Source of the DNA: an uncultured Gemmatimonadales bacterium
GTDB lineage: Bacteria; Gemmatimonadota; Gemmatimonadetes; Gemmatimonadales; GWC2-71-9
DNA length: 64,000 nt
Reading direction: 5' to 3'
Assembly: GCA_963761885.1 (NCBI GenBank)
Contig: CAVXIN010000005.1
Coordinates: 55,734-119,733 of the forward strand
Shown: positions 12,167 to 47,201 of the stretch, one piece after another
Layout: every line of letters starts with the position of its first letter
Position numbering within the stretch: position 1 is the stretch's first letter
Translations under genes and position numbers: made by a program
The notes under the pieces: model-generated
What the model was told of the DNA's origin: nothing
Databases searched by the model: none
The model's input: the letters and a program-made list of their open reading frames with translations, nothing else

Positions 12167-13108
12167 GTGAGCACGGCCGTCCTCGCGCTCGGCGGCAACG
12201 CGCTGTCGCGCGCCGACGAACCGGCGACGATCGCGAATCAGTTCCGGCGGGCGCGGGAGAGCATGGCCGCGGTGGTCACGCTCGCGCGGCAGGGATGGCG
12301 GATCGTCATCGTGCACGGGAACGGCCCGCAGGTGGGCGACTCCCTGGTCCGGAACGAAGTCGCCCGCCGCCTGGTCGAGCCCCACCCTCTCGGGATCCTG
12401 GTGGCGGAGACGGCGGGCTGGATCGGATACATGCTCCAGCAGACGCTCCAGAACGCACTCGCCGCGGGTCAGGTTCGCCGGCAGGTGGTCACCGTGGTGA
12501 CGCAGACGCTGGTAGACCAGTTCGATCCCGCCCTCGGCCTGCCCACGAAGCCGATCGGCCAACCGCTGTCCGACGCCGAGGCGGCACGGCTGACGGAGGC
12601 GGGGCGCGCGGTGGCCCGGGACGGCTCCGGTGCGTGGCGGCGGGTGACGACCAGCCCGACGCCGCTCGCCGTGATCGAGTTCCCGGTCGTGCGGAAACTG
12701 CTCGACGCGGACGTCATCGTGATCGCGGCGGGAGGCGGGGGGCCGCCGGTCTACGACGATCCCCTGCTGGGGCTCGAGGGCGTGGATGCGGTGGTGGACA
12801 AGGACAGAGTCGCGGCCGTCTTCGCCAGGCAGCTCGAGGCGGATGTATTGATGATTCTCACCAACGTGGACGCGGTCTACGAGGGTTGGGGCACGCCGGC
12901 GGCCCGGCCGATCCGCCGCATGACCGTGTCCCGCGCGAATGCCATGATCGCGGCCGGCGCCTTCGACGTCGGCGGCATGCGGCCCAAGGTCGAAGCGGCC
13001 GCCGCCTTCGCCCAGGGCGGAGAAGGACGGGCGATCATCGCCCATCTGGCATCAGGACCGGCCGCCCTCGAGGGCGCTTCCGGCACCACGATCGTGAGGG
13101 ATGCGTGA
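12167..13108 (+). CDS. arcC: carbamate kinase
   Basis: 313 aa with LALGGNAL, IVHGNGPQVG, VVDKD and GGMRPKVEAA motifs of the carbamate kinase / amino-acid kinase fold. Confidence 0.85.
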   Translation: MSTAVLALGGNALSRADEPATIANQFRRARESMAAVVTLARQGWRIVIVHGNGPQVGDSLVRNEVARRLVEPHPLGILVAETAGWIGYMLQQTLQNALAAGQVRRQVVTVVTQTLVDQFDPALGLPTKPIGQPLSDAEAARLTEAGRAVARDGSGAWRRVTTSPTPLAVIEFPVVRKLLDADVIVIAAGGGGPPVYDDPLLGLEGVDAVVDKDRVAAVFARQLEADVLMILTNVDAVYEGWGTPAARPIRRMTVSRANAMIAAGAFDVGGMRPKVEAAAAFAQGGEGRAIIAHLASGPAALEGASGTTIVRDA

Positions 13109-23618: not shown

Positions 23619-24677
23619 ATGAGCGTTGTAGATCGCACCTCAAGTGAGTTCGTAGATCTTCTCGACCTCTATCAGCGAGCGCCCCTGCTGGAGCTGGGAC
23701 AACTGGCCGACGCCGAGCGGTGGCGCCAGCATCCCGAGCCCGTGGTCACCTACATCATCGATCGCAACATCAACTACACCAACGTCTGCGTCGCGGACTG
23801 CAAGTTCTGCGCGTTTTATCGCCGGCCGCGCCACGCCGAGGGATACGTGCTCAGCTTCGAGGAGATCGGCGCCAAGATCGACGAGTGCAAGTCGATCGGC
23901 GGGGTGCAGATTCTTCTGCAAGGCGGGCACAACCCCTACATCCCGTTCGACTGGTACCTCGAGCTGATGCGCTACATCAAGCGGCATCACCCGATCCACA
24001 TCCACGGATTCTCCCCCAGCGAAGTGGTCTTCTTCAGCGAGCGCTTCGGACTGTCGGTACCGGATGTCGTCCGTGAGCTGCGCGAAGCCGGCCTGGACAG
24101 CATCCCTGGGGGAGGCGGCGAGATCCTGGTGGACGAGATCCGCGAGCGGGTGGCCAGGAAGAAGGCCCAGACCGAGGAGTGGCTCGGAGTTCAGGAGGAA
24201 GCGCACCGGCAAGGTATGAAGACCTCCGTCACCATGATGTACGGCCTCGGTGAGAGCGACGCGGACCGCCTCGAGCACCTTTTCCGGGTGCGCGAGGTAC
24301 AGGCGCGCACTGGCGGTTTCACCGCGTTCATCTGCTGGCCGCTCCAGCCGGAGGGGACGCCGGAGATGTCGCACTATCAGAAGACCGATGCCGTCACTTA
24401 CCTCCGGACCCTCGCGCTGGCGCGCATCGTCCTCCGGAACGTGCCGAATCTCCAGTCGTCCTGGGTGACGATGGGACACAAGGTGGGGCAGGTGGCGCTC
24501 CGGTTCGGTGCGAACGACTATGGCAGCCTGATGATGGAAGAGAACGTCGTATCCGCGGCGGGTACCACCTACCGCACCACCCTGGGTGAGATCGACCGGA
24601 TCATCCGCGATGCCGGGTATCAGCCGCGGCGGCGGCGGCAGGATTATGTGGTCATCGAGGACAGCGTAGCTGCATGA
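23619..24677 (+). CDS. mqnC: radical-SAM cyclic dehypoxanthine futalosine synthase (MqnC-like)
   Basis: ..YIIDRNINYTNVCVADCKFCAFYR..ILLQGGHNP..TMMYGLGE..ANDYGSLMMEENV..; 352 aa. Confidence 0.8.
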   Translation: MSVVDRTSSEFVDLLDLYQRAPLLELGQLADAERWRQHPEPVVTYIIDRNINYTNVCVADCKFCAFYRRPRHAEGYVLSFEEIGAKIDECKSIGGVQILLQGGHNPYIPFDWYLELMRYIKRHHPIHIHGFSPSEVVFFSERFGLSVPDVVRELREAGLDSIPGGGGEILVDEIRERVARKKAQTEEWLGVQEEAHRQGMKTSVTMMYGLGESDADRLEHLFRVREVQARTGGFTAFICWPLQPEGTPEMSHYQKTDAVTYLRTLALARIVLRNVPNLQSSWVTMGHKVGQVALRFGANDYGSLMMEENVVSAAGTTYRTTLGEIDRIIRDAGYQPRRRRQDYVVIEDSVAA

Positions 24678-24679
24678 GA

Positions 24680-24782
24680 GGCGGACGGGCGGACGGGCGG
24701 ACGGGCGGACAACGGCTCCGAACACAGAGGGTCGGTGCGCACCGCGAACCCGTCCGCCCTTCCGCCTGTCCGCCCGTCCGCC
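24680..24782. repeat. hairpin element copy A: 4x GGCGGACG-type octamers, 39-nt spacer, 4x inverted octamers; flanked by direct repeat CATGAGA(G)
   Basis: The left arm (24680-24711) and right arm (24751-24782) are complementary at 29 of 32 positions. The spacer contains the palindrome GGTGCGCACC (24734-24743). Direct repeats lie at 24673-24680 and 24783-24790. Confidence 0.85.
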
Positions 24783-24783
24783 C

Positions 24784-25257
24784 ATGAGAGTCGGCATCGG
24801 CTACGACTCGCACCGGTTCACCGACGGCAGGCCCCTGGTCCTGGCCGGTGTTCGCATTCCGGGCGAGCGGGGACTCGCCGGTCACTCGGATGCGGACGCC
24901 GTCGCTCACGCCCTCACCGACGCCATTCTGGGGGCCGCGGCGGCGGGCAACATCGGGCAACTCTTTCCCGACACCGACCCGCAGTGGAAGGACGCGGACT
25001 CGATGGAGCTCCTGCGGACCGCACATGAGCTGGTGCGCGGGCGCGGCTTCGCCTTCGTGCAGGCCGATCTGACCGTCATCACCGAGGCGCCGAGGCTTGC
25101 CCCTCATCTCGTGGCCATGGCGGCGTCGCTCGCGGGGCGGCTCGGCGTCTCGGCCGGCGCCGTCGGCGTCAAGGCGAAGACCAACGAAGGCATGGGCTTC
25201 ATCGGCCGGGGCGAGGGGCTCGCCGTCATCGCCGTGGCGGTGCTGGAGGCACGCTGA
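24784..25257 (+). CDS. ispF: 2-C-methyl-D-erythritol 2,4-cyclodiphosphate synthase
   Basis: [40 protein letters not shown]; 157 aa. Confidence 0.95.
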
Positions 25258-40887: not shown

Positions 40888-41435
40888 CGCGGGCAAGGCG
40901 TCCCGGGTCCGCGTGCTCGCATTGGACGTGGACGGTGTGCTGACCGACAATGGGATCTGGATCGGGCCGGTGCAGGGTGCGCGGATCGAGCTCAAGCGGT
41001 TCGACATCCAGGACGGCCTCGGCCTCCGACTAGTGCGCACGGCGGGCATTCCGATCGTGTGGCTGAGCGGGCGGCATTCCGAGGCTACGGCAATGCGCGC
41101 CGCCGAGCTGCAGATGGACGAGGTGCTGCAGGTCCCCGGCCCGGAAAAGCTGGCGGCCATGGAGGGCGTGCGCGCACGGCGCGGCCTCGAGTGGGAGGAG
41201 CTGGCCTTCGTGGGCGACGACCTGGCCGACCTCCAGGTGATGCGCAGGGTGGGTCTGCCCATAGCCGTGGCCAACGCCGTGCTCGAAATCCGCGCGGTCG
41301 CGGACTGCGTGACCAGCGCGCGAGGGGGCTACGGCGCCGTGCGTGAGGTCGCCGATGCGCTGCTCAGGGCGCGCGGCGTGTGGCCCGAGATGCTCGAGCG
41401 CTACTTCAGCGATCACGCCGCACGCAATGCGCTGA
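40877..41435 (+). CDS. kdsC: Kdo-8-phosphate phosphatase (HAD-IIIA); 3' end uncertain
   Basis: ..[51 protein letters not shown]... As assembled the frame stays open to 41569. A stop at 41433-41435 is reached only after a one-base shift, so the end is a guess based on family length. Confidence 0.65.
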
Positions 41436-42390
41436 TACCGGGGCGCTGGTGGAGCTGGGCCGGCGGGTGCTGCGCCTGGAGGCCTCCGCGGTCGCCGCGA
41501 TCGCCGACCGGCTCGATAGCAGGTTCGCGGAGGCGGCGCTGCTCATTCAGCAGGCGAAGGGGCGGGTGATCGTGTCTGGTGTGGGGAAGTCCGGGCTGGT
41601 GGCGCGCAAGATCGCCTCGACACTGACATCGACCGGCACGCCGGCGAGCTACCTGCATCCGATCGATTCGCTCCATGGCGATCTGGGCATCGTCGGGGCC
41701 GACGACGTGGCGATCGTGCTGAGCAAGAGCGGGCATTCCCAGGACCTGTTCGGCCTGCTCGGATCGCTCCAGCGTCTGGGCGTGCCGATCATCGCGGTGA
41801 CGGGCGGGATCGAGTCGGGGCTCGCGCGCGTGGCCCGAGTGGTCCTCGATGCATCCGTGGCCGAGGAGGCCTGCCCCCACGACCTGGCGCCGACGTCCAG
41901 CACGACGGCCGCCCTGGCGGTGGGCGACGCGCTCGCGATGGCGGTACTCGAGCTCAAGGGATTTCGGCGGGAGCAGTTCGCCGAGCTGCATCCGGGAGGC
42001 AGCCTCGGCCGCCGACTGTTGCTGCGCGTCCGGGATGTCATGCTGCCCCCGGGTCGTCTGCTGGCGCCCCAGGCCACGATGCGCGAGGCCGTCGTCAGCC
42101 TGGCCCGCGATCGCGGGATCGCCCTGGTCGGCGAGGGCGGGCAGCTCCGAGGCGTGGTCACCACCGGCGACCTCACCCGGCTGGCCGAGCGGGATCCCGA
42201 CTTTCTGGGTCGCCCGGTGTCGCAGGTGATGTCCTCCGATCCCAAGACCGCCGGCCCCGACGATCTCGCGGCCGCCGCGGTGGGGACGATGCAGGCGAAG
42301 GGCGTGATCGTACTGCCCGTCGTCTCCGGCGGCGGCGCGGTCGAGGGCGTGGTCCACCTCCACGACCTGATGCGCGCGGGGGCGGTGTGA
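41380..42390 (+). CDS. kdsD: arabinose-5-phosphate isomerase (KdsD/KpsF/GutQ)
   Basis: SIS domain ..GRVIVSGVGKSGLVARKIASTLTSTGTPASYLHP..GDLG.. plus two CBS repeats. The start is uncertain: ATG 41380 overlaps the kdsC tail, and GTG 41449 is an alternative. Confidence 0.85.
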   Translation: MARDARALLQRSRRTQCADTGALVELGRRVLRLEASAVAAIADRLDSRFAEAALLIQQAKGRVIVSGVGKSGLVARKIASTLTSTGTPASYLHPIDSLHGDLGIVGADDVAIVLSKSGHSQDLFGLLGSLQRLGVPIIAVTGGIESGLARVARVVLDASVAEEACPHDLAPTSSTTAALAVGDALAMAVLELKGFRREQFAELHPGGSLGRRLLLRVRDVMLPPGRLLAPQATMREAVVSLARDRGIALVGEGGQLRGVVTTGDLTRLAERDPDFLGRPVSQVMSSDPKTAGPDDLAAAAVGTMQAKGVIVLPVVSGGGAVEGVVHLHDLMRAGAV

Positions 42391-42392
42391 GG

Positions 42393-42519
42393 GGCGGACG
42401 GGCGGACGGGCGGACGGGCGGAAGGAACAGTCGTGCCGCTCGGAAGGGCTGCGGCCGGAGAGGACGCTCGGGCGCGTAGAGCATGCGTTTCCGCCCTTCC
42501 GCCCTTCCGCCCGTCCGCC
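42393..42519. repeat. hairpin element copy B: GGCGGACG x3 + GGCGGAAG, 63-nt spacer, 4 inverted octamers
   Basis: Left arm 42393-42424 and right arm 42488-42519 are complementary at 29 of 32 positions. The arms are near-identical to copy A but the spacer is unrelated. It begins 2 nt after the kdsD stop. Confidence 0.85.
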
Positions 42520-43068
42520 GCGTTACTGTCAGCGCTCTTGGCCCTCAGCCCCCTCGTCGCCTGCGAGGACCCCGGCGCCCGGCCGACCACGACGATTCAG
42601 GCTCCCGACAGCGCGGACCAGATCCTCGAGGGGTTCTCGCACTACGTGACCAACGACGGGATCCGCCGGAGCCGGGTGGAGGCGGACACGGCCTACTTCT
42701 ACGAGGCAACGCAGATCACCAACCTCGCGAAGCTCAAGGTCACGTTCTACGATCTCAAGGGCGCCGAGAGCTCGACGCTGACCGCCAAGCGCGGCCTGTA
42801 CCGATGGCAGGACGGATCGATGGAAGCGAACGACAACGTGGTAGTCGTGGCTCCCGATGGCAGGCGGCTCGCCACCGAGCGGCTGCGCTACGACAACGGC
42901 AGCAATCAGATCTCCACCGACCGGAAGTTTACCTTCGACCGCGGCGAGGAACACCTGGAAGGCAACAGCTTCCGCTCGGACCCGGACTTCCGGAACGTGG
43001 TCACTGACCGCCCCCGAGGCACCGCGGGCGACGGAATGCTCCTTCCCGGTCAGGAGGGCAAGCCGTGA
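42433..43068 (+). CDS. lptC: LptC-like periplasmic LPS-transport protein (lipoprotein-type signal); start lies inside repeat copy B
   Basis: Body ..ILEGFSHYVTNDGIRRSRVEADTAYFYE..LKVTFYDLKG..LTAKRGLYRWQDGSMEANDNVVVV.. has the LptC/OstA-like beta-jellyroll pattern. It sits between kdsD and an lptA-like gene. The signal peptide ALLSALLALSPLVAC is preceded by 29 element-encoded codons counted from GTG 42433. Confidence 0.6.
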   Translation: MPLGRAAAGEDARARRACVSALPPFRPSAALLSALLALSPLVACEDPGARPTTTIQAPDSADQILEGFSHYVTNDGIRRSRVEADTAYFYEATQITNLAKLKVTFYDLKGAESSTLTAKRGLYRWQDGSMEANDNVVVVAPDGRRLATERLRYDNGSNQISTDRKFTFDRGEEHLEGNSFRSDPDFRNVVTDRPRGTAGDGMLLPGQEGKP

Positions 43069-44452
43069 GCGGGCGGGCGGGGGTTCTCGGTATCGCTCTG
43101 CTAGTGGCTGCGTCCCCCCTCGCGGCTCAGAGCGAGCGCTGCGTCTTCCAGATCGACAACGTCGACCGCCAGGGCAGTGTGGTCGAGACCTCGCAAGGCA
43201 CCAACTATTTCGCGGGCGGAAACGTCAAGCTCAGCTGCCGCGGCACCAAGATTTCCATGCAGAGCGACAGCGTGGCGGCCTACGGCGGGAACGTGGTGCA
43301 GTTCATCGGCCGGGTGAAGTATCGCGACTCCACTCTGACGATGGATGCGGACCGGGGCATCTACTACAAGAACCGGGAGCGGTGGGAAGCCCGGGGCAAC
43401 GTGACGACGCAGAACATGAAGACCGGATCCACCCTGACCGGCCCGGCGCTGGACTACATGCGGGTGGTGAAGGGCGTTCGCGACACCCTCGAGATGTACT
43501 CCACCGGCCGACCCACGATCAAGTATTTCCCGACCGACTCGGGCGGGAAGCCGGCGGAGCCGTACGTGATCGTCGGCGACCGGGTGCGCTTCAAGGGGGA
43601 CGACCGGATCTTCGCGGGCGGCAAGGTCACGGTCGACCGGAGCGATTTTACCTCGCGCTCGGACTCGCTGCGGCTCGATACCGGGGCCGGGAGCGACGGC
43701 ACGCTGCTCGGCGGCATGCCTACCCTCCGGGGCGTCGGCGCCGACAGCTTCTCGATCACCGGCACCCGGATCGACCTGACCCTGGAGCAGCGCGACCTGA
43801 CCTATCTCCTGGCCAAGGGGAAGGCGCGCGCCATCAGCAAGGAGTGGGATCTGGTCGCCGACACGATCGCCCTCGACGTCAATCAGCGAAAGCTGGAGCA
43901 GACGCTGGCCTGGGGCGACGGCACCCGACCCTCGGCTACGTCGACCGCCTATGCGATGAAGGCCGACTCGCTCGCCCTGGACACGCCGAACCAGAAGCTG
44001 CGCGAAGTGCGAGGGTTCGGGAAAGCCTGGCTGGGCGGGAGCGTCTACGCCCCGACCCAGGACCGCGACTGGATGCGCGGCGATACGATCGTCGCCCGGT
44101 TTGCCAGCCTCGACTCGGCCGGCGCGCCAGCGGGCCGTCCTGAGCCGGATCGACGCCCGCCAGGCCGCCCAATCGTATCACATCGAGCCCAACAAGCGCC
44201 TGCCGCAGCGGCCGTCGATCAACTACGCGCGGGGCGACGCGATCACGGTCACGATGAAGTCGGGAACGCGCCACGGGGTCGGGCGTGGACCGGGTGGACG
44301 TGCGCGGGAAGGTGGATGGGGTCCAGCTCGAGGCCGACGCCGGACCAGCCGGCGATCCAGCCGCGACGCCGGGCACGCCGACCCCGACCCCCGGCGCTCG
44401 GCCGGCGCCGTCGCGGGCGGACTCCACGCCGGGCAGGCGCGTCGCCCGATGA
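43065..44452 (+). pseudogene. lptA: large OstA/LptA-like periplasmic protein, 2 frame breaks
   Basis: Signal peptide MSGRAGVLGIALLVAASPLAAQS, then repeated OstA-type strands (..NYFAGGNVKLS..VAAYGGNVVQFIGRVKY..ARGNVT..). It continues after ~44125 ([22 protein letters not shown]..) and after ~44285 ([18 protein letters not shown], then a Pro/Thr/Ala-rich tail). Stop is TGA 44450-44452. Confidence 0.6.
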
Positions 44453-45615
44453 GCGCCCCGGAATGGATCGCCTCACTCGGCGACCGCGATCCTTCGGTGC
44501 CCATTGCGCTGGCGGCGATCACTCGCGCGGCCGGTGTCACGGACACGGTGGACTTCGGCGACCTCGTGATGAGCTACCGCGAGGCCCATATCGCCTGCCA
44601 CCGGCCGCTCAACGGCCCGGTCCAGGTCGAGATCACCGGCGACGAGGTGCGCGATCACCTGACGCGCTCCGTGCTGCCCCGCCTGGCCACCGAGGGCTGG
44701 ATCCTCGATGCGCCGGGCGCGGACTGGAATCCGGTGCGCCCGCGGGTACCCTGGTGGGGACAGACACCGGAGGCGCGCCAGGGCGTCTACGAAGCGTTGC
44801 TGGACTCCGCCCGCCGGGCGGCCCAGCGCGGCGCCAAGCCGATCGTGGCCCAGGCCCCCTCGGCGAGCGTGCTGGAGGGGATGGACCTGCTCAAGAGCTT
44901 CAAGGGCCGCAAAGTGGTGGACAACGTCACCGTCCGGGTGCAGCAGGGCGAGATCGTCGGCCTGCTCGGTCCGAACGGGGCGGGAAAGACCACGACGTTC
45001 TACCTTATAACGGGCCTGATCCGGCCTGATCACGGCCGGGTCCTGCTGGACGGTCTCGATCTGACGCGCGCGCCGATGTATCGCCGGGCGCGCTCCGGAA
45101 TCGGTTACCTGGCGCAGGAACCCTCGATCTTCCGGAAAATGACGGTCGAGGAAAATATTCTGGCTATCCTGGAGACCCGCGACCTCGGCCGCACCGAGCG
45201 GCACCAGCGGCTCGACCGGATGCTGGATGAGCTCTCGATCAAGCATCTCCGCCGGAGCAAGGCATACTCGTTGAGTGGCGGAGAGCGGCGCAGGCTGGAG
45301 ATCACCCGGGCGCTGGTGAGCGAGCCGAAATTCATGTTGCTCGACGAGCCGTTCGCGGGCGTGGATCCGATTGCGGTGCACGACATTCAAACCATCGTCG
45401 CAGGGCTGCGGCATCGCGGCATCGGTGTGCTGATCACCGACCACAACGTCGAGCAGACGCTCGACATCGTCGACCGGGCCTACATCATGTTCGAGGGCAA
45501 AGTGCAGGCATCGGGGAGCGTGCGCGATCTCGTGTATGACGACCGCGTCGCCCAACTCTATCTGGGTCCCACCCTGACCGCGCGCTTGCGAGCGCGTCTC
45601 GAGGCGGTGGCATGA
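44449..45615 (+). CDS. lptB: LPS export ABC ATPase LptB with a 140-codon N-terminal extension of unknown function
   Basis: The core from GTG 44869 is [72 protein letters not shown]... The upstream 140 codons ([16 protein letters not shown]..) are in the same frame with no stop and have coding-like G/C third positions. Confidence 0.85.
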
Positions 45616-47201
45616 AGACCGGTCTCTCCCAGCACACGAGTCTCCGCCAGGAGCTGCGGGTCAATCCGCGGCTCTATCAGGCGATGGACATGCTGTACAT
45701 GCCCATGATGGACCTGCAGCAGCACCTGAAGCAGGAGCTGCTCTCCAACCCGTTCCTCGAGCTGCTCGAGCCCGAGGAGGAGACGCCGGAGCAGAAGGAC
45801 TCCGAGCAGGAGAAGGAGCAGAAGGAGAAGGAAGAGGAGATGGACTGGGAGGAGATCCTGCTCAACGGGTTCGAGGTCGGCGGCACCCGCGAGCAGTTCG
45901 AGCAGCTGGAGTACACCGAGCCGGTGACGGTCGAGACCAAAGACCTCATCGACCACCTGCGCGAGCAGCTGCAGATGCTGACGCTGAACCCCCGGCAACT
46001 GCTGCTGGCGGAGGAGTTCCTCGGCAACATCAACGAGGAGGGTTACCTCGCGGCTTCGGTGGAGGAGATCCGCGCGTCCGTGAATCAGCTGGTCGCCGCA
46101 CACGTGCGGCGGTCTGCTCCCGATGAGGACGGCGAGGGTCCCGGCGCCGAGCTCGACACCGAGGCGGTCACCGCCGAATTCGAGCCGGCGGCGCTGATCG
46201 GCGTGGTCGAGGATCCCATCGACGGAGCGCCACTCGAAGAGAACGTCCCGCTCCCGGAGGACCTGCCCTCCCCGCCGTATTACTCGGTGGCCGAGATGGA
46301 GGAGATGCTCGGCGTCATCCAGAAGCTCGATCCACCAGGCATCGGGGCCCGCGACCTGCGCGAGTGCCTCCTGATCCAGTTGCGCGAGGACAAGGACGTC
46401 GACTCCCTGACGTTCCGGCTGGTGGATGAGGCGTTCTCCGACCTGATCGCACACCGCTGGAACGATCTCGCCAAGCGGTTCGGCGTGGACCCTGCGGGGG
46501 TGCAGGGTGCTGCCGACGGCCTCGCGCGGCTCGACCCCAAACCCGGCCTCAAGTACGCCAATCAGAACGACGGGTACATCATCCCCGACCTGATCGTCGA
46601 GAAGATCGGCACCCGCTATCAGGTCTTCCTGAACGACACCGGGATGCCGAGGCTCCGGCTGAGCCGCTCCTATCAGGAGATCGCGCGGGACAAGAAGAAG
46701 ATGACGCCGGAGAACCGCGAGTTCATCGCCTCCAAGATGAACAGCGCGAACTGGATGATTCAGGCGATCGAGCAGCGGCGCCAGACCATGCTGAAGGTGA
46801 TGAACTTCATCGTCGACCGGCAGCGCGACTTCTTCGAGAAGGGAATCGAGTACCTGAAGCCGCTCACCCTGCGCGAGGTGGCCGAGGTCATCAACATGCA
46901 CGAGTCGACGGTGAGCCGGGTGACCAACGAGAAATACGTGCAGACGCCGCGCGGCGTGCTCCCGCTCAAGTTCTTCTTCTCCAGCGCACTCGCCACGGCC
47001 TCCGGCGAAGAGGCGAGCGCGCGGTCCATCCGCGCCAAGCTGCAGAAGATGGTCGGCGACGAGGACAGCGGGAAGCCGCTCACCGACCAGCAGATCGTCC
47101 ATCTCTTCCAGGAGCAGGGCATCCAGATCGCTCGGCGCACGGTGGCCAAGTACCGGGACCAGTTGGGGATCCTGCCGGCGCGCATGCGGAAGCGCGTATG
47201 A
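45612..47201 (+). CDS. rpoN: RNA polymerase sigma-54 factor
   Basis: Region I ([27 protein letters not shown]), acidic region II, C-terminal HTH (..[20 protein letters not shown]..) and RpoN box ARRTVAKYR; intact 529 aa. Confidence 0.95.

Follow-up and report, generated by a model that had tools for sequence, protein, structure and literature searches.

The stretch of DNA analysed here, 64,000 nt of contig CAVXIN010000005.1 (assembly GCA_963761885.1, an uncultured Gemmatimonadales bacterium) and hereafter called the window, contains a 127-nt hairpin built of mirrored 8-base repeats (copy B, 42393-42519) at the 5' coding end of lptC, directly downstream of kdsD. Comparison with relatives indicates that copy B is extra DNA in a junction at which the two genes ancestrally overlapped. 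Copy B lies between the ancestral start codon, GTG 42387, and the hydrophobic core of the LptC signal peptide, and we propose, with a probability of about 60%, that such inserts are normally read through in frame in this clade. In the window as given, the start codon is severed from the gene by a shift of one nucleotide, which is most likely an assembly artefact superimposed on a real repeat.

Searches for LptC homologues yielded more than 1000 proteins, and the best 120 of these, 76-96% identical, were used; the names given in their source records point to Gemmatimonadales. Orthologous kdsD-lptC junctions were taken from 18 species genomes plus further contigs (handles beginning with L). Where the insert is lacking, the start of lptC overlaps the kdsD stop, either as GTGTGA with a GTG start (L001, L010, and L011) or as ATGA with an ATG start (L002, L005, L008, and L009), and is followed by a lipoprotein signal peptide of 17-20 residues, e.g. 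MRRALLSVLSVLSVLAC or MRRGGTAVAILGVATLLAC. In silico removal of 42393-42519 from the window yields GTG AGG GCG TTA CTG ... TGC, i.e. MRALLSALLALSPLVAC. An earlier note on this DNA, made from the letters of the window, had read copy B as an insertion and had predicted such a short signal peptide, with a start overlapping the kdsD stop, for relatives without the element; the orthologous junctions bear this out.

Ten independent junctions contain an insert (L003, L012, L141, L142, L144, L145, L147, L153, L154, and L155). In all ten, the original start shares the frame of the lipobox Cys without an intervening stop codon, so that the ancestral start would read through the whole insert. The gaps between the kdsD stop and the Cys codon are 71, 80, 95, 116, 134, 140, 143, 146, 152, and 200 nt, and all of them are 2 modulo 3. 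Inserts that are multiples of three and free of stops are thus found in ten relatives, and the copy in the window, as given, has 127 nt and lies in an indel-prone sequence. Three of the ten loci were chosen from long gene calls and are therefore in frame by construction. An unbiased genome scan supplied two (L003 and L012), and five (L144, L145, L153, L154, and L155) were chosen because gene callers had cut the N-terminus short; a long in-frame open reading frame (ORF) was found in 5/5 of the latter. For the loci sampled without a bias towards long ORFs, 7/7 are in frame, for which the chance is (1/3)^7, or ~5e-4.

The inserts differ considerably in sequence and size. Arms of the GGCGGACG type are present in L147/L148 and L155/L156, GGCGGAAC units in L145/L146, and GGGCAGCG units in L003. 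The insert of L144 is expanded, with a 5' arm of ~9 units, L153 has a solo array of three units, L012 a weaker hairpin, and L141 (96% identity) a mini-hairpin of 36 nt. L142/L143 (93% LptC identity) carry an element with a loop homologous to that of copy B. Together, the lptC sites form a graded series, from ~1 unit (L001) via a 3-unit solo array, a mini-hairpin, and a full hairpin to an expanded hairpin. In L154, a different palindromic repeat occupies the same spot in the n-region, again in frame. For the 120 LptC representatives, we also counted the residues that precede the lipobox Cys. Ordinary signal peptides with 14-27 residues were found in 54, 28-35 residues in 19, and 36 or more residues in 36, while 11 had 13 or fewer, i.e. 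truncated gene calls. The net charge is zero or above in all extensions of at least 28 residues.

The exceptions to the in-frame rule are the window and three junctions of a family with 9-mer arms (L004, L006, and L013); among the 8-mer junctions, the window alone is +1 out of frame. L004 and L013, in which the lptC frame is broken, are contigs of metagenome-assembled genomes (MAGs) with MFD names, which suggest long reads. L006 is a short-read contig, in which the ancestral start is gone (GTC TGA). Acidic residues would result from translation of its 5' arm, and the hydrophobic h-region SVLSVLSVL is specified by its 3' arm; to judge from these frames, its start must sit in the 5' arm or, more plausibly, in the loop. 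In the 9-mer family (the lptC junctions of L004, L006, and L013, and L009 9957-10006), the C-rich array CTCTCCGTC encodes the signal-peptide h-region itself, as LSVLSVLSV. L009 has the repeat in the signal peptide without any 5' arm, suggesting that a part of the hairpin may have become a functional signal peptide.

The anatomy of copy B is compiled in Table 1. The 5' arm begins 2 bases past the TGA of kdsD, the arms pair at 29/32 positions by inspection, and an inverted-repeat search returned arms of 31 nt with a complementarity of 94%. The sequence AAGGA (42422-42426) spans the boundary of the 5' arm and the loop and lies 6 nt 5' of GTG 42433. The RNA fold of this strand has a free energy of -103 kcal/mol (z=-6.0), and 0/200 shuffled sequences were as good; the corresponding DNA fold has -53.8 kcal/mol (z=-6.05). 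For a 14-mer arm pattern, 15 matches were counted in the window versus 5.3 expected, and 0/100 shuffles reached 15, and all exact or 1-mismatch matches in the window are within copy A, described below (24680-24782), or copy B. The hairpin is real and far beyond chance. The coordinates in the earlier note, its 29/32 pairing, its 63-nt loop, its excision product, and the end of the GTG 42387 frame after 30 codons at TAG 42477-42479 were all reproduced.

The reading of the arrays is peculiar in that (GGCGGACG)n encodes the cyclic peptide GGRADGRT in all three frames, and the complementary array the peptide SARPPVRP; both are stop-free and net positive. The three frames give one cyclic peptide because 8 and 3 are coprime. 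In the window, lptC is in the same frame as kdsD, and this frame stays open from 42391, directly past the TGA, through both arms. When 42200-42700 was scanned against Rfam with a permissive threshold, only sub-threshold miRNA-like hairpins were returned, the best being mir-H1 with 33 bits versus a gathering score of 97. A scan for promoters and terminators gave none at copy B, and nothing terminator-like in 42000-43000. After the 3' arm comes GCGTTACTG, and the combination of a GC-rich stem and a U tract, which defines an intrinsic terminator, is not present.

The two genes at the junction are well defined. The listed ORF of kdsD opens at GTG 41380, and homology to relatives of 320 aa begins near 41428; a tblastn search aligned aa 1-320 of the L147 KdsD to 41428-42387 of the window. 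The stop is TGA 42388-42390, and the C-terminal tail HLHDLMRAGAV* is invariant in relatives. The ORF of 211 aa that opens at GTG 42433 matches PF06835 with an E value of 9e-13 and 48.7 bits (cut-off 21). The assignment as LptC is based on this score above the Pfam gathering threshold and on the neighbours, i.e. kdsC, kdsD, an OstA-like gene, lptB, and rpoN. The lipobox Cys is present in 120/120 homologue representatives and is followed by E-[DE]-x-G-A/V-[RK]-P (window 42562-42580). The LptC of this clade is therefore predicted to be a lipoprotein with a conserved lipobox Cys; the LptC of E. coli has an N-terminal transmembrane anchor instead. By inspection, ALLSALLALSPLVA-C, with the lipobox L-V-A-C, has the features of a signal peptide for signal peptidase II (a positive n-region, a hydrophobic h-region, and the lipobox pattern [LVI][ASTVI][GAS]C), and the net charge of the n-region is +1 for the excised form, +3 from GTG 42433, and +4 for the in-frame read-through. 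Further downstream, LptB (44449-45612) has 387 aa with an N-terminal extension of ~140 residues before the ABC ATPase domain, which is kept in L142 and L147 (94-95% identity).

Table 1 Features of the window at the kdsD/lptC junction, the second hairpin copy, and uncompensated insertions relative to L142
Feature	Position	Strand	Remarks
kdsD (arabinose-5-phosphate isomerase; SIS + CBS)	41380..42390	+	Pfam SIS 1.3e-22, CBS 2.9e-14
Ancestral lptC start GTG	42387..42389	+	overlaps the kdsD stop (GTGA); +1 out of the lptC frame as given
5' arm of copy B (G-rich array)	42393-42424	+	tandem octamers GGCGGACG x3, then GGCGGAAG
Loop of copy B, 63 nt	42425-42487	+	contains in-frame GTG 42433-42435 and TAG 42477-42479
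3' arm of copy B (C-rich array)	42488-42519	+	TTTCCGCC CTTCCGCC CTTCCGCC CGTCCGCC; lptC-frame reading VSALPPFRPSA
lptC signal-peptide h-region and lipobox	42520..42564	+	ALLSALLALSPLVA-C; Cys codon 42562-42564
Mature LptC-like domain	42565..43068	+	PF06835; 76-96% identity to Gemmatimonadales proteins, several named LptC in source records
Copy A	24673..24790	+	between the mqnC/cofH-like radical-SAM gene and ispF
Uncompensated +1	~37882		kdsB-like
Uncompensated +1	~40697		kdsA
Uncompensated +1 (two)	~44127, ~44269		lptA-like gene; confirmed vs short-read relatives L147 and L141
Uncompensated +1 (two)	~48966, ~49048		GT4 glycosyltransferase
Uncompensated +1	~51552		YfhO-like gene

To account for the frame break, the genes of L142, which are intact, were aligned with the window by tblastn and blastn. 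Copy B is orthologous to the L142 element, as judged from the loops, and would be older than the split from L142, in which the copy is fully in frame. The 3' half of the loop is homologous in both (CGCTCGGGCGCGTAGAGCATGCG in the window, CGCTTGGGGGCATAGGTCATTCG in L142), and from 42442 on the lptC frame of the window equals the translated frame of L142 (GGA AGG GCT ... CGT AGA vs CAT AGG), so that the surplus base should lie in 42390-42441. Because the frames of the array are equivalent at the peptide level, protein alignment cannot place it inside the arm. At least seven other uncompensated 1-nt insertions relative to L142 are present in the window (Table 1), and the high protein identity on both sides of each break makes consensus errors likelier than decay. 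The break in lptC is of the same +1 type as these insertions, which affect conserved genes that are intact in relatives, and a consensus indel is thus its likeliest cause. We consider it probable that the frame break of copy B is an assembly indel, i.e. a 1-nt insertion, and the true LptC product would then read MRADGRTGGRAEGTVVPLGR...ALLSALLALSPLVAC. The rpoN gene shows a similar picture: its frame is broken in a repeat-bearing linker in L001, L004, and L008, with a hairpin called there only in L004, and this region is intact in L003, L005, L006, L009, L010, and L013. The MFD-named MAG contigs appear to have error hot spots at repeat hairpins. In a window so prone to indels, any inference from reading frames needs caution.

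Several points weigh against an assembly indel. The background error is ~0.35-0.5 per kb, which gives a prior of only 3-5% for an error inside the 89-nt stretch, and the case for an artefact therefore rests on the rarity of real out-of-frame relatives (0/5 of the truncated calls that were checked). The evidence is assembled sequence, and the +1 shift could be real. In that case, GTG 42387 would open a dead-end ORF of 30 codons, and lptC would be translated from GTG 42433 with a signal peptide of 44 residues, MPLGRAAAGEDARARRACVSALPPFRPSA plus ALLSALLALSPLVAC. This GTG is in frame in the single-stranded loop, has the good AAGGA 6 nt upstream, and would give a plausible n-region with a net charge of +3. 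The relocation of a start into the element does occur, in L006: the start overlapping kdsD has been lost there, a GTG in the loop, which gives MTSHARGIWSRRAVRSVLSVFSVLSVLSC, is left as the sole plausible start, and the loop segment GAACAG..CGTG is similar in L006 and the window. Nevertheless, we regard such a co-option as rather unlikely, since the ancestral start is in frame in all relatives of the 8-mer family that were examined, the GTG overlap is still intact in the window, and at least seven frame-breaking 1-nt insertions are found on the same contig in conserved genes of the cluster for 3-deoxy-D-manno-octulosonic acid (KDO) synthesis and lipopolysaccharide (LPS) transport, e.g. kdsA and kdsB, the break in question also being +1. 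In contrast to the statement in the earlier note, GTG 42433 is not the only canonical start in frame, as TTG 42538 is in frame too, though it would leave only MALSPLVAC.

Genuine damage by the element, which would leave lptC a pseudogene or poorly expressed, appears very improbable. The termination of the ancestral frame, as given, at TAG 42477 and the broken appearance of adjacent LPS genes would be compatible with it. However, the body of lptC is intact in a single frame and 82-96% identical to relatives, its frame is open through the whole element, and the adjacent breaks, being single +1 insertions within genes of otherwise high conservation, bear the hallmark of consensus errors. The earlier conclusion that the element severs the signal peptide from its start, with either damage or co-option as a consequence, is not supported, given the 10/10 in-frame relatives with inserts and the indel-prone nature of the window. 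Two further candidates were rejected. Read-through of the kdsD stop, conceivable as kdsD and lptC share a frame in the window, does not agree with the relatives for which the junction frame was computed, since the frames differ there. Programmed frameshifting would require a +1 shift, for which there is no slippery site, and is not conserved.

If the ancestral start reads through the insert, the latter would lengthen only the n-region of the signal peptide, as a flexible peptide of zero or positive net charge. The extension would be part of the n-region of a Sec/signal peptidase II substrate, and cleavage at the lipobox Cys would leave the mature LptC unchanged. As the extension would be discarded together with the signal peptide, the lptC n-region would be a safe harbour, and this would explain why different palindromic repeats pile up at this spot, a second family being found in L154, P0042, and P0076. 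The structure of the mRNA should have a further consequence. A stem of 31 bp that starts 4 nt past the start codon should block the binding of free 30S subunits, and the initiation of lptC translation would then depend on ribosomes that terminate at the overlapping kdsD stop. A weakness of this scheme is that both signal-peptide cleavage and translational coupling are inferred by us from the DNA, and effects on KdsD termination or on mRNA stability are possible as well.

The second hairpin in the window, copy A, has the octamer arms of copy B at 24680-24710 and 24752-24782, with an unrelated 41-nt loop. The direct repeat CATGAGA(G) flanks it on both sides (24673-24679 and 24783-24789), and this duplication preserves both the upstream TGA and the ATG of ispF. 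A single-copy empty site is present in L150 (1495-1515; GCGTGAGAGTCGGC / GCGTGAGAGTC). L149 (1470-1510; 97% IspF identity) lacks octamer arms but contains the duplication together with a spacer of 24 nt. The IspF homologues are uniformly 157-158 aa long and have no N-terminal extensions, unlike LptC. Only the arms are common to both copies, in line with the earlier description of the spacers as unrelated.

To estimate the occurrence of the class outside the window, we scanned metagenomes for the exact 22-mer and obtained at least 120 stretches (L021-L140), of which 116 were evaluable. Among the matches listed, a complementary array within 260 nt was found in 33 of the 116 (~28%), with mutually unrelated loops of 8-220 nt. 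At these loci, the G-rich array precedes the C-rich array in 32 cases and the reverse order occurs in none; seven direct pairs were also found, most of them interrupted arrays. The metagenome arrays have between 3 and more than 12 units (L107 and L110), and the outer units are mostly canonical while the inner ones are degenerate. Flanking direct repeats showed no excess over the control in the 33 hairpins and are absent at copy B, as had been noticed before; their lack is the norm for these hairpins, and copy A is the exception. A search of a plasmid collection with the element gave one arm-like match of 37 nt in Streptomyces, which is uninformative, and viral contigs gave two matches (one long tandem array and one solo array) without a hairpin context.

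Units vary by lineage and comprise 8-, 9-, and 10-mers, with a GGCGG core in the G-rich units. Hairpins of this class are found in frame inside tgt (L047), yidC (L113), and a gene for a protein resembling penicillin-binding proteins (L048). The rpoN gene, ~3.5 kb downstream of lptC, has tandem arms of 9-mers, (GACGGAGAG)n, in the acidic region-II linker of sigma-54, where they read GEDGEDGE...SPSSPPSPSSPP (L009 13505-13630; also L003, L004, L005, L006, L010, and L013); the rpoN of the window (45612-47201) has only a possible remnant (EDGEG...LPSPP). In a DUF1501 gene (L090, minus strand ~12176-12346; L039), the G-rich array starts right past the upstream stop, the loop consists of the native Shine-Dalgarno sequence, the ATG, and a twin-arginine translocation (Tat) signal peptide conserved in 120 homologues, and the C-rich array codes for a variable linker that follows this signal peptide. 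L090 and L039 have arms of 8-mers, and L157 (1-200), from another lineage, has 10-mers, GGGCGGTAAT and CATTACCGCC, at the same positions. A second, unrelated palindromic repeat with a core of ~GTCATCCCGAGCG...CGCTCGGGATGAC is nested in the loops of L038, L065, L108, L111, L128, L138, and L140; the second palindromic family fills the lptC n-region site in frame in L154 (700-825) and is also found in the proteins P0042 and P0076.

How such arrays arise is a separate question. Quasipalindrome correction by template switching and the slipped-strand dynamics of repeats are established mutational mechanisms, which would explain that the arms change unit and length at a fixed locus and yet stay complementary. 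Alone, they leave unexplained the GGCGG-core unit at unrelated loci and the 32 to 0 polarity. Because the loops are unrelated or native and only the arms are shared, the conserved entity would be a pair of arrays with a GGCGG core and not a cassette. The arrays would expand, contract, and homogenize in place, by slippage and hairpin-templated correction, from a GGCGG-rich seed. We think that the comparisons favour such an origin in place over the movement of a cassette.

Several observations speak against an origin in place and would fit a transposon-like element, i.e. the octamer that is identical in copies A and B and recurs in at least 120 metagenome contigs, the clean duplication of 7-8 bp at copy A with its empty site in a relative, and the strict polarity of 32 to 0. 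The hairpin could accordingly be a mobile miniature element, of the type of miniature transposable elements with inverted repeats (MITEs), foldback elements, or doublets of repetitive extragenic palindromic (REP) sequences (REPINs), which has octamer arrays as terminal inverted repeats, was inserted independently at kdsD/lptC and mqnC/ispF, and is tolerated where it is in frame. The identical arm units in both window copies, the exact 22-mer in at least 120 contigs with a complementary downstream arm in ~28%, the orientation of GGCGGACG inward from both ends, the CATGAGA(G) duplication together with L150, and the precedent of in-frame palindromic inserts in Rickettsia (PMC10969869) are all compatible with this possibility. 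We nevertheless give it limited credence, as flanking duplications do not exceed the control in the 33 metagenome hairpins or occur at copy B, the loops share nothing, the DUF1501 loop is native (ribosome-binding site, start, and Tat signal peptide) and its arms switch from 8-mers to 10-mers in place, L149 has the duplication and the spacer of copy A but no arms, and no transposase is linked to the arrays, though no search for one was made.

Less probable still seems a cis-regulatory structure, in RNA or DNA, that selection maintains at the 5' ends of genes encoding exported proteins and that would act by translational coupling, slowed early elongation, an RNase III or mRNA-stability site, or as a protein-binding array. 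Its position is conserved while the arm sequences co-vary across lineages at lptC, rpoN, and DUF1501, the arms are 88-100% complementary although the encoded peptide is unconstrained, and many copies either lie next to a stop codon or surround a start codon together with a signal peptide. On the other hand, the hairpins are patchy in close relatives, with an ordinary short signal peptide in 54/120 LptC representatives, and the stem at one site ranges from 10 to more than 50 bp. Furthermore, arrays also occur inside tgt, yidC, and the sigma-54 linker without an apparent common regulatory logic, a different palindromic repeat sits at the lptC spot in L154, and neither an Rfam family nor a terminator signal was found at copy B. 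A G-quadruplex was rejected as a general explanation, since GGG runs, of which copy B contains four, are lacking in the 9- and 10-mer families, and an invertible segment (inverton) was rejected because loops of 8-65 nt would be too short for it and copies are found in frame within genes.

The arrays share features with several known systems. Eukaryotic foldback elements have inverted ends made of tandem subrepeats. Cyanobacterial short tandemly repeated repetitive (STRR) sequences are dispersed short tandem repeats with 7-nt units in a bacterial phylum; to our knowledge, they have not been described as obligate inverted pairs or as in-frame extensions of signal peptides. With MITEs, the hairpins have in common the terminal inverted repeats of fixed polarity (arms of 31-32 nt, 94%) and, at copy A, a flanking duplication of 7-8 bp. 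In contrast to MITEs and foldback elements, there is no general target duplication of fixed length and no shared internal sequence, and the arms may flank native gene sequence. REP sequences, bacterial interspersed mosaic elements (BIMEs), and REPINs are likewise GC-rich hairpins located right after stop codons in operons, with spacers less conserved than the arms (REPINs, PMC3116915; CGTC- and GTAG-tagged REPs, PMC3733652), and the units found here contain CGTC. However, a REP is a single imperfect palindrome of 20-40 nt linked to a REP-associated tyrosine transposase (RAYT), whereas each arm here is a direct tandem array that is itself non-palindromic, and the copies are often intragenic and in frame.

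The closest behaviour is that of the Rickettsia palindromic elements (RPEs), which, as reviewed in PMC10969869 citing Ogata et al. 2000, are short palindromes located in frame inside coding genes, where they are translated and tolerated in permissive parts of the proteins; in-frame copies are similarly found here in lptC, rpoN, tgt, and yidC of relatives. RPEs have a consensus of ~100-150 bp that encodes a conserved peptide, while only the repeat arms are common to the present hairpins, which consist of tandem units of 8-10 nt in Gemmatimonadales. A full-text literature search with a 16-mer and for repeat elements of Gemmatimonadota gave no description of such arrays, and the hairpin class is apparently undescribed. 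Tentatively, it could be a class of its own, i.e. strictly polar inverted arrays with a GGCGG core, units of 8-10 nt, and any loop, located at fixed 5'-end positions, in frame when translated, and with arms that change together in sequence and even in repeat period as lineages evolve.

For the interpretation of such genomes, the junction implies that repeat hairpins may coincide with frame errors in MAGs that appear to be built from long reads, so that relatives and reads should be checked before a disruption or a new start is read into a conserved gene for LPS transport. A cleavable signal peptide would provide a safe harbour in which hairpin-forming arrays undergo translation and are subsequently removed. 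In soil Gemmatimonadales, the arrays seem widespread and uncharacterized, and standard models of MITEs or REPs do not account for their polarity, GGCGG core, co-varying arms, and intragenic copies in rpoN, tgt, and yidC. If they do form a class of their own, it would be present in Gemmatimonadales and perhaps in other soil bacteria, located just past an upstream stop and inside or bracketing the coding sequence of signal peptides. Polar arrays that co-vary would then imply a dedicated sequence-specific maintenance or a selected role in the translation or secretion of envelope proteins, and not an ordinary transposon. Active maintenance or a function of the arrays, if real, would have implications for how translation is initiated and coupled, for the expression of envelope proteins, and for the entry of new peptide segments into proteins.

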